Notes under the pieces: generated by a model
Told to the model about the DNA's origin: nothing
Databases searched by the model: none
The model's input: only the letters and a program-made list of their open reading frames with translations
Shown: positions 35,641-48,166 of the stretch, piece after piece
How positions within the stretch are numbered: the stretch's first letter is position 1
Layout of the letters: the number at the start of each line of letters is the position of its first letter
Translations under genes and position numbers: made by a program
Source: a virus
Taxonomy: Duplodnaviria; Caudoviricetes
DNA length: 53,046 nucleotides
Strand: one strand, 5' to 3'
Virus record (IMG/VR): IMGVR_UViG_3300043112_000103
Coordinates: 1-53,046 of that record

Positions 35641-37965
35641 ATGCTGATAATAAAAAGAAACGGTGAAGAAGTAACTTTTGACAAATCTAAAATCGAAAGA
35701 GTCTTGACTAATGTATTTCTAGAATATAACAAAGTCGAGGAAAATGTTGTGAAAGACTTGGCTGATATAATCACAGGAAAAGTGGGCGACGGAATGCACG
35801 TTGAAGAAATACAGGATATAGTCGAGAACTCTCTGATTGAATATGGTTACGTGGAGCTGGCTAAGGCTTATATCAAATATCGAGAAAATAAAAATAAAAC
35901 GAGAAATAAAAGATATAAAAAGGGCGGGCTAAGTAAGGAATTTTTGAGCAAATACAAGCACAAAAAAGACCCGTTCCCAACTGAACTTGGAAAGTTCATT
36001 TATTACAGGACGTATTCCCGCTGGCTTCCGGAAGAACAACGCCGGGAATATTGGTGGGAAACAGTCAAGCGGGCTGTGGAATATAATTGCAGTTTAGCAC
36101 CGACTTCTCAAAAAGAAATGGAGGAACTTTTCGACCGGGTTTATAATTTCAAAAACTTTTTAGCCGGCCGTACTCTGTGGACAGGCGGAACAGAAGCAAG
36201 CAGAAAATACCCAATGAGTAACTATAACTGTTCATTTACGGTCGTTGATAATTTCAAATCGTATGAAGATTTATTTTACTTGCTACTAATCGGAGCGGGA
36301 GTTGGTGTCAGAGTTTTACGTGAGGACGTTGAAAAACTGCCGCCGGTTAGAACAGATATCGAAGTCAAGCACGAATATTATTCTCCTGTGGCTAAATCAG
36401 AACGGGCGGAATTTTCAAGATATGAGTTCAATGATGAAAACACTGCGGCCAGCATATATGTAGGGGATTCCAAAGAAGCGTGGGTGCAGGCGTTGAAAAT
36501 ATTATTTGAATTTTTGACTAAGCACGAATACCGTTCAATAAATGAACTCTATTTTAATTATAATTCAGTCCGGCCTAAAGGGGAACGCTTGAAAACTTTT
36601 GGTGGAACTGCTTCCGGACACGAAAGTATCAAGAAAATGTTCGATAAAATTGATATGGTTTTAAAGCAGAAAAAGGAAAACAAGGTAAAATTGAAACCAC
36701 TTGACTGTCTAGATATTGCAAATATAATCGGCGAGAATGTTGTGTCGGGTGGTGTCAGAAGAACTTCCGAAATTGGTTTATTCGACGCTGATAATGAAAA
36801 TATAAAATCTGCTAAAAGTGAGTTATATACTCAAGTTGACGGCGAGTGGCAGATTGACGAAAAAATAGAGCACAGGCAAATGAGTAATAATTCTATTTAC
36901 TATAAAGAGAAACCTACCCGGGAACAGTTAAATTGGCATATCAAGAAAATGCGTTATTCCGGTGAGCCGGGTTTCATAAATGCAGAAGAAGGTGCAAGAC
37001 GCCGGGAAAATTTCAAAGGCGTAAATCCTTGTGCGGAAATCTTGCTTGACGGCAACGGCGTTTGTAATCTAGTTTCTTTGAATGTGAAAGCATTTGTTAA
37101 AAACGGCGATATTGATTTTGAGGATTTAATGAAATCACAGAGAATGAATGTTCGTTCCGCTTATAGAATGGCCTTAGTAGAATTTGAACTGCCAGAGTGG
37201 GATTATGTGAACAGCCGGGACAGGTTGGTGGGCCTAAGTCTTACAGGTTGGCAGGACGCAATGAACGCTTTAGGCTGGGAAAATGAGAAAGAAAAACAGG
37301 TAGGGTTATTGAGGAATTTGAAAAAAGTTGCCGAGGAAGAAGCAGAAAAAGTTGCGGCAGAATATGACGACGAAGTTCCGGTGCTTGTAACGACTGTGAA
37401 ACCGGAAGGAACACAAACTCAAATGCCAACAGTTTCCAGCGGCTTACATTATAATCACTCTGCTTATTATATCCGCCGGGTAAGAATTTCAGCTTCCGAC
37501 CCACTGGTAAAAGTGGCCGAGGAATTAGACTGGAATGTAAAAGACGAAGTGGGCGACAATCCGAACACAAAAGTTTTGGAATTTCCTGTCAAAGCTCCGA
37601 AGGGAAAAATCAAATCAGACGTTTCCGCAATTGAACAGCTAGAAACTTATAAAATGTTTATGAAGGAATACGTCGACCACAACGCTTCAATTACAATCCA
37701 CGTTCGAGATAATGAATGGGAGGCCGTAGAACAATGGCTGTGGGAAAATTGGGATTCAGTTGTTGGCGTGAGTTTCATTTCTTACGACGATAATTTTTAC
37801 GACCTGATGCCTTATGAAGAAATCACAGAAAAGGAATATCAAGAAATGGCCAAAAATATGAACACTTTCAAAACTCACTTGGTAAATAAATATGAGAGAG
37901 AACATCAAAAAGAACGGGAATTGGAACAAGACGAATGCGAAAATGGTGTTTGTCCTGTTCGATAG
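35641..37965 (+). CDS. nrdJ: Class II (B12-dependent) ribonucleoside-triphosphate reductase with ATP cone
   Basis: IIKRNG..V.FD..KI cone; RTYSR, NCSF, GGVRR, NPCAEI, TVKPEGT, C-terminal CENGVCPVR; no small-subunit gene. Confidence 0.93.
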   Translation: MLIIKRNGEEVTFDKSKIERVLTNVFLEYNKVEENVVKDLADIITGKVGDGMHVEEIQDIVENSLIEYGYVELAKAYIKYRENKNKTRNKRYKKGGLSKEFLSKYKHKKDPFPTELGKFIYYRTYSRWLPEEQRREYWWETVKRAVEYNCSLAPTSQKEMEELFDRVYNFKNFLAGRTLWTGGTEASRKYPMSNYNCSFTVVDNFKSYEDLFYLLLIGAGVGVRVLREDVEKLPPVRTDIEVKHEYYSPVAKSERAEFSRYEFNDENTAASIYVGDSKEAWVQALKILFEFLTKHEYRSINELYFNYNSVRPKGERLKTFGGTASGHESIKKMFDKIDMVLKQKKENKVKLKPLDCLDIANIIGENVVSGGVRRTSEIGLFDADNENIKSAKSELYTQVDGEWQIDEKIEHRQMSNNSIYYKEKPTREQLNWHIKKMRYSGEPGFINAEEGARRRENFKGVNPCAEILLDGNGVCNLVSLNVKAFVKNGDIDFEDLMKSQRMNVRSAYRMALVEFELPEWDYVNSRDRLVGLSLTGWQDAMNALGWENEKEKQVGLLRNLKKVAEEEAEKVAAEYDDEVPVLVTTVKPEGTQTQMPTVSSGLHYNHSAYYIRRVRISASDPLVKVAEELDWNVKDEVGDNPNTKVLEFPVKAPKGKIKSDVSAIEQLETYKMFMKEYVDHNASITIHVRDNEWEAVEQWLWENWDSVVGVSFISYDDNFYDLMPYEEITEKEYQEMAKNMNTFKTHLVNKYEREHQKERELEQDECENGVCPVR

Positions 37966-43907: not shown

Positions 43908-43967
43908 TAAATATGGCCCATTTTATATAAAATGAAATAAAATGAAATAAAATTTTATATAAATTCA

Positions 43968-43995
43968 GCTCCCGTTTTACACAGCGGGAGTTTTC
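43968..43995 (+). terminator. Intrinsic terminator ending early region
   Basis: GCTCCCG/CGGGAGT stem plus T-run. Confidence 0.7.
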
Positions 43996-44121
43996 TATTT
44001 CCAAAATATGTCTGCTTTATGTTAAATTCGTTGGATATTGTGCGAACTTTGTACAAGGTTTTAAGGCGTTTTATATAAAAAGGGCCATAATTACTTTGTA
44101 CTTCATTTCACTTTCGAAAAA

Positions 44122-44350
44122 ATATATGGCAAATATGGAGGTCAAATCGGAAAACTTTTTTAAAAATGAGGGAAAAGGCGTTAGAACATATTTTAGCGAT
44201 TTTTAAAAAAGTTTTCTATTATTACTTCCATATTCCTTATATGTACTTTCTTTTCTAAAACTATTTTAAAATAAAGTACATATAAAAATAAGTATTTAGT
44301 TTGAAATAAAAAAGTTTTCGAAAAGAAACGCCATATTCGCCATATTTTTT
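44122..44350. repeat. Non-coding repeat element B (inverted copy of 17281-17492)
   Basis: About 167/212 identical, ungapped, by manual count. Confidence 0.85.
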
Positions 44351-44564
44351 CCTTATATTACCAATGCTGACAGTAATAACTAACAATTAGTAAAGGCTTC
44401 CATATATGTTTTATGCTGTAATTGACTGGTCTTTTTTGGGCTTCACTTCCTTATTAAAACTTTATTTCCATTTATACTCTTTTATTGGTTTTTATTTCCA
44501 AAGAGAAAAAATTCACAAGGTTTTATATAAAAACGTTAATTTTTACTATAAATGTAATATATTT

Positions 44565-44593
44565 TTGACAAAGTTATTAAAATCAGATATAAT
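44565..44593 (+). promoter_or_regulatory. Consensus sigma-A promoter for ParB/ATPase/GNAT/terminase operon
   Basis: TTGACA-17-TATAAT. Confidence 0.85.
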
Positions 44594-44621
44594 TAGGGTA
44601 GAATACAAGGAGGTGGAAATT

Positions 44622-45164
44622 TTGAAAATTTCAGACAAAATTGTAAAGATGAGTGTCGAGGAAATTCTTCCTTACCACAACAATCCAAAAAAGCACCCGG
44701 CAGAACAGGTCGATAAAATTGCGAGCAGTATCAGACATTACGGTTTCGTTCAGCCGATTGTAATTGACGGAAATAATGAAATAATTTTGGGCCACGGAAG
44801 ATTTCAGGCCGCAAAGAAACTTAAAATGGAAGAAGTGCCTGTTGTAGTGAAAGACGATTTAACCGAAAGCGAGGTCAAGGCTTTAAGAATTGCCGACAAT
44901 AAAGTGGCCGAGAGTGATTGGGATATGGATATGCTAGAACTAGAATTTGAGCAGATAGAGGACGAGTTTTCCGGTTTTGACCCGGACGAGATAGAGGATA
45001 TTATGGCCGACTTTAATGACGAAGTAAAGGACAAAGAAGACCTGTCGGACAAAATTCACGAAGAATTTCAAGTGATTGTAAAGTGCGAAACGGAAGCAGA
45101 ACAAGAGCAACTTTTTTACCAGCTTACAGAGGAGGGTTACAATTGCCAAGTTTTAACATTGTAA
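44622..45164 (+). CDS. ParB/Srx N-terminal domain protein
   Basis: PY..NP..H...QV..IA.SI..YGF..PIVID....I..GHGR..AA, RIADNK; TTG after AGGAGG. Confidence 0.9.
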   Translation: MKISDKIVKMSVEEILPYHNNPKKHPAEQVDKIASSIRHYGFVQPIVIDGNNEIILGHGRFQAAKKLKMEEVPVVVKDDLTESEVKALRIADNKVAESDWDMDMLELEFEQIEDEFSGFDPDEIEDIMADFNDEVKDKEDLSDKIHEEFQVIVKCETEAEQEQLFYQLTEEGYNCQVLTL

Positions 45165-45850
45165 AAGAAATTGAGCCGGTTGATTCATTTAGAGTGTCTA
45201 GTGTTAAAAGTGCTTTTGACTTAAAGGTTGAGAGGGTCAAGGAACAGTTCAAGGGCAATATTGATATTGAAGGTAAAGACTGGAACGTTGGTTTAATTGT
45301 GGGAGGAAGTGGAACAGGAAAAACCACAATTGCTAAAGAGGTTTTTGGCGAGGAATATATTACTGATTTTGAATACAGCGGTGGTAGTATAATTGACGAA
45401 ATGCCAAAAAGCAAATCAGTAAAGGAAGTCGAAAAACAGTTTACGTCAGTTGGTTTTGCAAGTCCACCGAGTTGGCTGAAACCTTATCACGTTTTATCCA
45501 ACGGTGAAAAAATGAGAGCAGATTTGGCCCGGGCGTTACTCGAGGAAAAAGAAATGGTTGTATTCGACGAGTTTACTTCTGTGGTCGACCGGGACGTTGC
45601 AAAGACCGGAAGTTTTGCCGTCAGTAAGGCTGTGCGAAAAGCTGGTAAGAAGTTTATCGCTGTGGCCTGTCATAAGGATATCATTGACTGGCTGGAGCCA
45701 GACTGGATTTATGATACAGACCAAAAGAAGTTTTTTTTTACCCAGAACAGGAAAGACCAAAACGACCCGAAATCAAACTCGACATATATAGAGTTGATAA
45801 CGCTCTTAAAGGGAAAGTTTGGGACTTATTCAAAAAGTACCATTATCTAG
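45143..45850 (+). CDS. Soluble ABC-type ATPase (N-terminal part of ATPase-GNAT fusion)
   Basis: GGSGTGKTT, LSNGE..R..LA, VFDEFTSVVDR, ACH.DI..WL.PDW; TTG after GGAGGG. Confidence 0.88.
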   Translation: MPSFNIVKEIEPVDSFRVSSVKSAFDLKVERVKEQFKGNIDIEGKDWNVGLIVGGSGTGKTTIAKEVFGEEYITDFEYSGGSIIDEMPKSKSVKEVEKQFTSVGFASPPSWLKPYHVLSNGEKMRADLARALLEEKEMVVFDEFTSVVDRDVAKTGSFAVSKAVRKAGKKFIAVACHKDIIDWLEPDWIYDTDQKKFFFTQNRKDQNDPKSNSTYIELITLLKGKFGTYSKSTII

Positions 45851-46251
45851 ACCACGATTTGCACAAGGCCGCTGAACAATGGGTCGGAGTTTGGGAAGGT
45901 AATATTGTGGCCCACACAGGTGTCATTCAGTTTCCGCTCCGTAAAGGCTGGAAAAGAGTTCACAGGCTGGTAGTTCTCCCGGACTTTCAAGGAATAGGAA
46001 TCGGAACGAGATTTATAACAGAAGTGGCCCGGGAATATATAAAGCGGGGAAAGAATATGAGTTTAATAACGACCACTCCCGCTTTAGTTCACGCTTTGAA
46101 AAAACACAAAAACTGGCCGCTTGTGAGATACGGGAGAATTAAAAGCACAATGGGTAAAATGAACAATAAATATGGGCTTGATAATAAACACTTAGGTGAC
46201 AAAAATTCGACAGGCAGAATAACTTATTCATTTGAATTTGTGAAAGATTAA
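45715..46251 (+). CDS. GNAT-fold acetyltransferase in the -1 frame (track start 45859)
   Basis: RPEI...W.LFK.YHYL, RLVVLPDFQGIGIG; frame open from 45715. Confidence 0.85.
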   Translation, partial: YRPKEVFFYPEQERPKRPEIKLDIYRVDNALKGKVWDLFKKYHYLDHDLHKAAEQWVGVWEGNIVAHTGVIQFPLRKGWKRVHRLVVLPDFQGIGIGTRFITEVAREYIKRGKNMSLITTTPALVHALKKHKNWPLVRYGRIKSTMGKMNNKYGLDNKHLGDKNSTGRITYSFEFVKD

Positions 46252-46267
46252 CAGGAGGTGATTTACA

Positions 46268-46696
46268 ATGGGAAAGGGATATCCTTGGGCGGAAATAAAA
46301 AACCGTTACGAAACAGGGCAATACTCTATGGACGAACTCGCTGACGAATATGGTTTCCACCCGGAATACGGTCGGACTAAAGCAAGGAAGAACGGCTGGG
46401 AAAAAGGTCGTTTAGCTGAAAAGATAGACGCAGAAGCGGCCCGGAAATTAATTGGCGAGCAGTCAGATAAGGAAGCAAAATTGAGGGCTGAATATGAGAA
46501 AATTATAACCAATATCAGACGTGGAGCTTATAACGCTTTATTCAAGGAAAAAAATCATTCAAGGCTAAGACAGTTCAAGACAGCCGCCGGAATAATGGAA
46601 AAGTGCCGGAAAGAGCAATGGGAAATCAATGGGATAAAAGAAACAGCCAAAGACGTAAATCAGCTCGTTCAGATTGTGGATGATATTGATGAGTAA
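46268..46696 (+). CDS. terS: Terminase small subunit
   Basis: W..IK..YE.G......LA..YG...W HTH; C-terminal IVDDI; precedes TerL. Confidence 0.75.
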   Translation: MGKGYPWAEIKNRYETGQYSMDELADEYGFHPEYGRTKARKNGWEKGRLAEKIDAEAARKLIGEQSDKEAKLRAEYEKIITNIRRGAYNALFKEKNHSRLRQFKTAAGIMEKCRKEQWEINGIKETAKDVNQLVQIVDDIDE

Positions 46697-46894: not shown

Positions 46895-48166
46895 ATGGCG
46901 AACGTACAATTAAGCGACATAGTATTAGATAATTTTTACGATTTTTGGAATGCAACGAAGGACGACAGTTATATTTATTACGTTCTTAAAGGCGGTCGTT
47001 CTTCCGGAAAATCCTCCCAAATTGCTTTAAATAGACTTCTTGAAACAATGAAAAATCCGGTAAACGGACTGGCTGTCAGAAAATATGCTAAATATGTGCG
47101 TGAATCAATTTTCACAGAATTTAAATGGGCCGCTCGAATGTTGGGCGTCCGTCATTTATTCCAGTTCAAGACTTCGCCAATGGAAATCATTTATAAACCG
47201 AGAGGAAATAAAATCCTGTTGGCCGGTGCTGACGACCCACAGAGAATTAAGTCATTGAGTACCGAGGAATTTCCTTATACTTGGCTGTGGATAGAAGAAC
47301 TTGCGGAGTTCAGAACAGAAGAAAAAGTAACTGTAATAGAAGATAGTATAATGAGAGAGGAAACCGGGTATTCATATAAAATATTCTTTTCTTACAATCC
47401 GCCGCAGAGAAAAACTAATTGGTGCAACAAGAAATTCAATTCCGTTACAATCCCGGACTTCTATTATATACATCATTCTGATTATACAAGCAATCCATAT
47501 ATCGCCCAGCAGACCTTACAGAAAATAAATCACTTGAAAGAGGAAAATGAAAGAAAATATAGACACACTTGGCTCGGTGAGCCGATTGGCTCGGGTGTTG
47601 TTCCCTTTGATAATCTAGAGTTCAGAAAAATAACTGACAAGGAAATAAGAAGGTTTGATAATATCCGGCCCGGGATTGACTGGGGCTATGGAGCAGACCC
47701 GTTTTCTTATGTCCGCTGGCACTTAGATAAAAAACGGAGAATTTTATATGCAATTGATGAGATTTATGAGGTAAAATTGAGCAACAGGAGAGCGGCTAAT
47801 AAAATAAAGGCAAAAGGTTATGAAAATGATTTGATAATTGCTGATAGTGCCGAGCCAAAGTCAATTGATGAAATGAAAGAATACGGAATCAGAATTGAAG
47901 GTGCTTCCAAAGGCCCGGGGTCAGTCGAGTATGGAGAAAAGTGGCTGGATGACCTTAATAAAATTGTGATTGACCCGGACAGAACTCCGAATATCGCAAG
48001 GGAATTTGAGAATATTGATTATGAAACAGACAAGGACGGGAATATAAAAAACAGGTTAATGGATAAAGACAATCACACAATAGACAGCACCCGTTACGCT
48101 TGTGAAAGAGATATGGAACGACAAATTGATTTACGACCAAGAAGTAATAAACCGAGAGGATTTTAG
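46895..48166 (+). CDS. terL: Terminase large subunit, PBSX/SPP1-like
   Basis: KGGRSSGKS, WIEE, SYNPP, GIDWGY..DP, ADSAEP, NH.IDS.RY. Confidence 0.95.
   Translation: MANVQLSDIVLDNFYDFWNATKDDSYIYYVLKGGRSSGKSSQIALNRLLETMKNPVNGLAVRKYAKYVRESIFTEFKWAARMLGVRHLFQFKTSPMEIIYKPRGNKILLAGADDPQRIKSLSTEEFPYTWLWIEELAEFRTEEKVTVIEDSIMREETGYSYKIFFSYNPPQRKTNWCNKKFNSVTIPDFYYIHHSDYTSNPYIAQQTLQKINHLKEENERKYRHTWLGEPIGSGVVPFDNLEFRKITDKEIRRFDNIRPGIDWGYGADPFSYVRWHLDKKRRILYAIDEIYEVKLSNRRAANKIKAKGYENDLIIADSAEPKSIDEMKEYGIRIEGASKGPGSVEYGEKWLDDLNKIVIDPDRTPNIAREFENIDYETDKDGNIKNRLMDKDNHTIDSTRYACERDMERQIDLRPRSNKPRGF

Follow-up and report, generated by a model that had tools for sequence, protein, structure and literature searches.

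A conserved frame break at a run of nine thymines probably joins a phage ABC-type ATPase and a GNAT domain as one recoded gene

The window analysed here, meaning the whole 53,046-nt stretch of IMG/VR virus record IMGVR_UViG_3300043112_000103 (Duplodnaviria; Caudoviricetes), is phage-genome-like with genes read from a single strand, and our subject is a module within it where an ABC-type ATPase open reading frame (ORF) and a GNAT segment meet across a frame break at a run of nine thymines (T9). The module, whose features all lie on the plus strand, begins with a sigma-70-type consensus promoter (44565-44593; TTGACA, 17 nt, TATAAT) that scores 12/12 and ranks top in the scanned region. Behind it come a ParB_N gene (44622-45164; TTG start preceded by GGAGG; Pfam ParB_N, E 7e-12), the zero-frame ABC-type ATPase ORF whose start shares 22 nt with that gene (45143-45850; TTG start preceded by GGAGGG; Pfam ABC_tran, E 2e-9), and the -1-frame GNAT stretch (45715-46251; Pfam Acetyltransf_1, E 6e-8). 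A small-terminase-like ORF (46268-46696) lies directly downstream of GNAT and is followed by the large terminase TerL (46895-48166), after which come portal and minor head protein genes.

Evaluating the break itself, we found that the T9 (45731-45739) supplies three Phe codons after an AAG and marks the proposed -1 frame-change site. In the -1 frame, a stop at 45712-45714 is followed by an open stretch that begins at 45715 and runs to the next stop, at 46249-46251, and in which the first ATG, GTG or TTG is the TTG at 45859; the zero frame ends at a TAG (45848-45850) within the codons for Y-H-Y-L (45838-45849). Positions 45740-45850 are therefore dual-coded, as a zero-frame tail and as the N-terminal part of GNAT (beta1, alpha1) in the -1 frame. 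The third frame (45558-45791) is open for only 19 codons past the run, and transcripts with one U fewer would yield a third, shorter ATPase product. The T9 is the sole homopolymer of 8 or more in the 53,046 bases, for which first-order Markov simulations expect a mean of 14.2 A/T runs of at least 9, and long homopolymers seem to have been purged genome-wide in the window phage. The original prediction, made from the sequence alone, had described one consensus promoter leading through ParB_N, ABC-type ATPase and GNAT into the terminases, the T9 as AAG TTT TTT TTT at the end of the ATPase domain, and a -1 frame that is open only from 45715, has no ATG or good ribosome-binding site before it and carries the GNAT core, and our reanalysis agrees with it in each of these respects.

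Contigs from 4 runs of 4 studies cross 45731-45739 with 0 gaps and 1-11 substitutions (minority alleles are invisible in contigs), and because they show substitutions and no gaps, diverged strains all carry the T9. Run X8 is labelled RNA-Seq and is probably DNA.

Profile comparison supports reading the ATPase ORF and the GNAT segment as two halves of one phage gene family. Over positions 8-196 of its 357-position profile, the family phrog_11143 matches the ATPase ORF (residues 9-202, E 1e-63), and over positions 194-349 it matches the -1-frame segment (E 2e-34), such that the two matches meet at the T-run; its PHROG function is unassigned, and IMG names the family 'ABC-type ATPase with predicted acetyltransferase domain'. 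Homologues in which both domains form one unbroken chain of 350-400 residues are common, while the window has no such single two-domain ORF and carries GNAT in the -1 frame behind the T9. The short ORF consists of an ABC-type ATPase (residues 1-199) and a 36-codon tail. Its ATPase part has the Walker A (45302-45325), signature (LSNGE, 45494-45508), Walker B (45557-45571) and H-loop motifs of a phrog_11143-type nucleotide-binding domain (NBD), and residues G54, S56, G57, G59, K60, L118, S119, G121, D142, E143 and H177 are invariant across 40 homologues. On the GNAT side, the acetyl-CoA loop Q-G-I-G-I-G lies at 45988-46005, and Q279, G280 and G282 are invariant among 25 aligned fused homologues, in which the linker that runs from the P-D-W motif of the ATPase to R-P-x-I of GNAT is variable. 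AlphaFold2 modelled one fused homologue as an ABC NBD followed by GNAT, with a mean predicted local distance difference test score (pLDDT) of 88, and Foldseek of this model matched the ATPase fold to solved ABC NBDs. The T-run residues form the last ATPase beta-strand (E196-199) in the models of both the fused homologue and the short form, and in the former GNAT beta1 is E210-213 and alpha1 is H218-227.

Four phage records carry the same family, namely Lactococcus P335 (L001 in our survey), Streptococcus 315.4 (L003) and phiNIH1.1 (L004), and Oenococcus unk162 (L002). GenBank labels their ATPase half 'ABC transporter' or 'iron siderophore transporter, fused permease and ATPase', names that are misleading because this half has no permease domain, and leaves their GNAT half hypothetical or without annotation.

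We surveyed the frame relation in 165 sources (160 fetched related loci, the four phage records and the window), of which 161 held both domains and the remaining 4 were contigs that ended before GNAT; the GNAT segment alone recovered no relatives in viral contigs, and an alignment query was used instead. Relative to the ATPase, GNAT lies in the same frame in 98 of the 161 loci, in the -1 frame in 60 and in the +1 frame in 3, a 60-to-3 direction bias that random indels would not produce. The original prediction had proposed to ask whether homologues keep both the T-run and the frame break, and many do: among the 60 -1 loci, 30 have T6-T9 at the Phe site and 18 have A9-A10 about ten codons downstream of it, in a Lys run just before R-P, so that 48 carry a run of one kind or the other. 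T9 occurs in the window and 11 other unique loci, and A9/A10 in 17 unique loci. Among the best 120 of 7654 ATPase homologues (64-100% identity), all are 231-235 residues long with the stop in the same place and an invariant Phe pair.

The finer structure of these runs is also constrained. T7 relatives hold the phase NNT TTT TTT without exception even as the preceding residue varies (Arg, Cys, Ala, Ser, Tyr, Thr, with the codon always ending in T), T6 relatives read T_TTT_TTC, and a G precedes the T9 in 12 of 12 unique T9 loci. Such details of phase and context point to selection on the run itself. A FastTree tree built on the ATPase part requires no fewer than 11 changes of frame state, so the break arrangement has been gained or lost repeatedly.

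Three loci depart from these patterns. In L022 (1830-1950) a T9 stands at the junction, yet after a G7 run about 25 codons downstream most of GNAT again reads in the ATPase frame; the cause is either an assembly error or a compensating indel, which would scramble GNAT beta1. The +1-frame locus L021 (2580-2650) has T6 where its kin have T7 and a second break at a C-run, and the +1-frame locus L102 (2590-2640) has an A9 run differing in length from that of its kin; these run-length changes may be natural or artefactual.

Assessing the overlap for coding signatures, we found that entropy by GNAT codon position in 27 unique T-run loci is 0.97/0.70/1.19, with the third position most variable, and that GNAT-frame-synonymous changes in the T-run class number 142, as against 66 in the reverse class. 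At the level of aligned sequences, this pattern shows the -1 frame to be under protein-coding selection within the overlap and indicates that it is translated from the run onwards. Across 53 unique -1 loci, no conserved independent start for GNAT emerged: the first ATG, GTG or TTG ranges from -57 to +69 codons around Y-H-Y-L, falls at or after that motif in 28 of the 53, and is preceded by a Shine-Dalgarno (SD)-like sequence in 4.

The zero-frame tail, on which the original prediction was silent, is itself conserved. It spans 28-37 codons in the 27 unique T-run loci and always stops (TAG, TAA or TGA) inside the Y-H-Y-L codons, and the same relative frame in the remainder of GNAT holds 279 stops in 3539 codons. 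Of 147 unique loci, 146 retain this +1-frame ORF (as counted from GNAT) together with its stop, including 44/44 fused A10 loci and 47/47 fused loci with no run, at up to 68% GC. At the stop site, Leu is never CTT or CTC and always xTA before Asp, and the next Ser is always AGY, codon choices that fit selection for the tail stop. When codons were resampled synonymously with the GNAT protein and per-gene codon usage held, 31.5 of 141 loci were expected to have both tail features and 139 were observed to have them. Likewise, in each of the four classes, GNAT-frame-synonymous changes occur in the overlap at only a half to a third of their frequency in a control stretch taken from the same genes.

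Taking these observations together, our preferred interpretation, to which we assign a probability of roughly 75%, is that the window carries one recoded gene that would give a short ATPase-tail protein and a long ATPase-GNAT protein, chiefly via RNA polymerase slippage at the T9 and not via a DNA switch. Standard decoding would end at the TAG (45848-45850) and give the short ATPase with its tail of about 36 residues, and a fraction of expression would move to the -1 frame at the T9 and give the long fusion. In the window phage the main route would be slippage of the polymerase with addition of one U to the run, with a -1 slip of tRNA-Phe on the in-phase U_UUU_UUU as a second, possibly concurrent route; both would yield the same protein. 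Across the family, polymerase slippage would be the main route for T9 and A9/A10, and the ribosomal route may dominate in the T7 and T6C relatives. A late-operon gene would in this manner supply two isoforms at a set ratio, in the way of dnaX, instead of an ON/OFF switch in the DNA. From the locus and its relatives we infer the production of both proteins, as well as its route and ratio.

We favour polymerase slippage because phase variation is unlikely, because the usual helpers of -1 frameshifting are missing, and because slippage at runs of nine has precedent: in bacteria, transcription slips efficiently on stretches of nine A or T, as in Thermus dnaX and Shigella mxiE (PMC5009743). As to helpers, RNAalifold placed 0 conserved pairs downstream in 22 loci, and the window fold has z = +0.29 against shuffles, a missing structure that favours polymerase slippage over stimulated -1 frameshifting. 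Neither is there an SD-like element 6-17 nt upstream of the T9, the upstream 17 nt in the window holding no GGAG, GAGG or AGGA.

Several observations weigh against this interpretation. The related loci share kinship, so their counts are not independent events, and of the changes of frame state needed on the tree only 3 are forced by well-supported branches. Twelve of the 60 -1 loci lack a run of the kinds described and have T4/T5 or no run; nine of these 12 have T4/T5, including the Lactococcus P335, Streptococcus 315.4/phiNIH1.1 and Oenococcus phages, and at such loci neither slippage route is expected to be efficient. In the T7 and T6C relatives the runs are on the short side for the polymerase to slip efficiently, and the strict phase of their heptamers would suit a ribosomal slip instead. 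The ribosomal route has its own difficulty in that U_UUU_UUU is less shift-prone than A_AAA_AAG in E. coli (PMC5009743). Lastly, the tail is predicted to be disordered (AlphaFold2 pLDDT <50, with the ATPase confident), which leaves a role for the short isoform without explanation.

The strongest competitor keeps the same two products and makes the shift mainly ribosomal, by -1 frameshifting on U_UUU_UUU with polymerase slippage minor, and we consider it possible, if on balance unlikely. A heptamer of the X_XXY_YYZ type in zero-frame phase is indeed present (T_TTT_TTT within the T9), the fixed NNT TTT TTT phase of the T7 loci persists despite the varying preceding residue, and the T6 form T_TTT_TTC is also a canonical heptamer; in the relatives from phages of lactic acid bacteria, which have only T4/T5, a slip of the P-site tRNA is the only conceivable one. 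These points have to be set against the absence of a conserved hairpin or pseudoknot and of a GGAGG-like element at the distances searched, the weakness of U_UUU_UUU as a shifter in E. coli (PMC5009743), and a sister subgroup whose A9/A10 occurs in varying phase and better fits the polymerase.

A second alternative is that two separate proteins are made, with GNAT translated alone from TTG 45859 or by termination-reinitiation. Gene callers and GenBank do annotate two ORFs (Orf24/Orf25 in P335), and a TTG overlaps the stop in some loci. We nonetheless regard this as improbable, given that -1-frame homology and purifying selection reach the T-run, about 40 codons upstream of 45859, that this upstream stretch holds GNAT beta1 and alpha1, and that the start position is not conserved, with an SD-like sequence in just 4/53. 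Termination-reinitiation at the zero-frame stop itself was considered and set aside; the Leu codon there is often CTA, the window included, which is not a start.

The original prediction had held that a full fusion is made only by a -1 change, with T9-to-T10 phase variation among the routes. Its first part is supported, in that the frame break is conserved, directional and linked to runs; the phase-variation route is not. Under that route, slipped-strand mispairing would flip T9 (OFF) and T10 (ON) within the phage population, and 9-base homopolymers are mutable in replication, with odd frames at or near junction runs in L021, L102 and L022 in its favour. Even so, no in-frame T8 or T10 appears in the 27 unique T-run loci, the 120 best clusters or the contigs of the 4 independent assemblies, and the OFF state is fixed across lineages of 64-70% identity; at a contingency locus, close relatives would be expected to differ in state. 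A DNA switch is thus very improbable. Least credible is a decaying pseudogene or a homopolymer assembly error, for although homopolymer frameshifts are a common sequencing artefact, independent assemblies agree, Sanger-era phage genomes have the same -1 arrangement, the direction bias is 60 to 3, and the GNAT motifs are intact and under selection.

Fused relatives, whose other recoding signals also lie beyond the original prediction, extend these observations. Of the 98 same-frame loci, 50 keep an in-frame A9/A10 (all but one A10) in near-invariant sequence context; one extra A in this run leads to an immediate stop in 46/46 unique loci, and one A fewer leads into the tail ORF. Fused loci with no run carry, at the junction only, an in-frame GG[AG]GG, 3 nt and [CG]TT_C (38/47 unique junctions), a motif found at 0/25 T-run (the window is without it), 0/42 A10 and 0/17 A-run junctions. 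The codon after the slip codon is CGG, CAA, CGT or CAG, with no in-frame A-site stop, and a +1 slip at this RF2-like motif would lead into the tail ORF. Among 16 high-GC loci, the motif has AGG in 15/16 and GTT or CTT in 16/16, and elsewhere in those genes AGG, GTT and CTT account for 4.6%, 5.5% and 6.4% of the codons in their respective synonymous sets. A rival reading takes the motif as a rare-codon pause at the domain linker, and leaves the conserved +1 ORF unaccounted for. Four methanogen-associated fused loci (L057, L088, L090 and L092) are without a long run or SD-like motif and read TTT TCC TTT CGG or TTT ACC TTT CGC at the junction; they too keep the +1 ORF and its stop.

We tentatively propose, at somewhat less than an even chance, that the whole ParB-linked ABC-ATPase-GNAT family may be dual-coded by a +1 ORF of 24-37 codons, with three interchangeable devices yielding two products. 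The first device, that of the window, would be slippage at T7/T9 or A9/A10 that leads into the GNAT frame; the second, slippage out of the GNAT frame at the invariant in-frame A10, where an extra A leads to a stop; and the third, an RF2-like cassette of GG[AG]GG, 3 nt and CUU_C or GUU_C followed by a sense codon. If true, the RF2-like device would be the first SD-stimulated +1 programmed frameshift outside prfB.

Among the closest known systems is dnaX (tau/gamma), where one gene also gives long and short isoforms that share an N-terminal ATPase, with an A/T homopolymer or heptamer recoding site at the domain boundary. E. coli dnaX uses a -1 frameshift at A_AAA_AAG and Thermus thermophilus dnaX uses transcriptional slippage at a run of nine, and dnaX lineages differ in device and even reverse the default product (PMC5009743, PMC3711429), a diversity resembled in the phrog_11143 family by its T-run, A-run and fused loci. 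The systems differ in that dnaX encodes a clamp-loader AAA+ protein with a near-immediate stop, whereas here an ABC-type NBD is paired with GNAT and the alternative C-terminus is a conserved overlapping ORF of 24-37 codons, with no stimulatory hairpin. Shigella mxiE/spa and insertion sequence (IS) transposases, which rely on programmed transcriptional realignment at T9/A-runs, likewise offer a coding-strand T9 and produce the fusion only from slipped transcripts (PMC5009743); they are cellular or IS genes with experimental proof, whereas the window gene is known by comparison only. The phage tail chaperone pair G/GT shares a conserved -1 change in a late operon with a short major and a long minor product, but sits among tail genes, while the window gene precedes the terminase and encodes enzymes. 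G/GT uses heptamers such as G_GGA_AAG. The fused relatives resemble prfB (RF2) in their SD-like element, 3-nt spacer and CUU slip codon, and yeast Ty1 (CUU_AGG_C) in the sense codon (Arg/Gln) after the slip codon (PMC5009743); unlike prfB, they have no A-site stop, and the window itself lacks the motif.

Turning to genomic context, 141 of the 161 loci have a ParB_N gene immediately before the ATPase on the same strand, with a median overlap of 18 nt, and in 36 a window-like terminase lies within 2 kb downstream. Phage DNA methyltransferases have an N-terminal domain that this type of ParB_N resembles (phrog_498; PADLOC MTase_II), a likeness that is the sole hint at the gated modification of packaged DNA put forward in the original prediction. 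Searches of NCBIfam and PADLOC gave nothing above curated cut-offs, and for GNAT the kin recovered were viral GNAT clusters in the ESM Atlas only, with a PDB sequence search returning E >=0.1; Foldseek of the whole fused model returned only ABC NBDs and is thus uninformative on GNAT kin. A complex prediction of the short ATPase with ParB scored 0.00, with controls not run. Among proteins of known function, TmcA/NAT10 is an ATP-dependent RNA cytidine acetyltransferase that couples a P-loop NTPase to a GNAT-fold transferase, and Mu Mom is an acyltransferase-fold DNA modifier. The NTPase here differs from that of TmcA/NAT10 in being an ABC NBD and not a helicase-type domain, and sequence searches gave no match to TmcA/NAT10 or Mom (generic GNAT only in Pfam; E >=0.1 for PDB sequences). 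With low confidence, we would guess at ATP-driven acyl transfer, with ParB, on DNA or on a packaging-stage protein, and at a short isoform that sets the number of GNAT domains per ATPase dimer.

In the literature searched, which includes passages in PMC5009743, PMC3711429, PMC4066793, PMC10853773 and PMC12839542, we found no description of recoding in the phrog_11143 family; the GeneTack supplementary cluster lists, outside that search, might contain it. The class of mechanism is already known (dnaX, mxiE, IS elements, phage G/GT) and the T9 case of the window would be a further member, whereas dual coding across the family, and the RF2-like cassette, would go further beyond what is known if they were confirmed. 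If true, these findings would add a large phage and prophage family across bacteria and archaea to the few conserved programmed-recoding genes, and the family could serve as a test bed for polymerase versus ribosomal slippage and for an RF2-type SD-CUU cassette acting on a sense codon. Annotation pipelines that split the gene into a transporter and a 'hypothetical protein' hide a conserved ParB / ATPase-GNAT module that stands at the head of a packaging operon.

Upstream of the module promoter, a terminator-like hairpin (43967-43992, plus strand) closes the preceding operon, and a 570-base AT-rich spacer separates the two. The AT-rich intergenic region as a whole (43921-44532, plus strand) holds three copies of the palindromic 12-mer TTTTATATAAAA (at 43921, 44069 and 44521). 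These are the only 3 matches in the window and are confined to the AT-rich spacer between upstream terminator and module promoter, where shuffles expect 0.05; they could represent a late-gene control operator or a packaging-related site. Farther upstream, a large ribonucleotide reductase gene (35641-37965) matches phrog_367 (E 5e-171) with an NrdD-like N-terminal match. An anaerobic host fits both this gene and the presence of the sequence in metagenomes from oil fields, shale and the subsurface.

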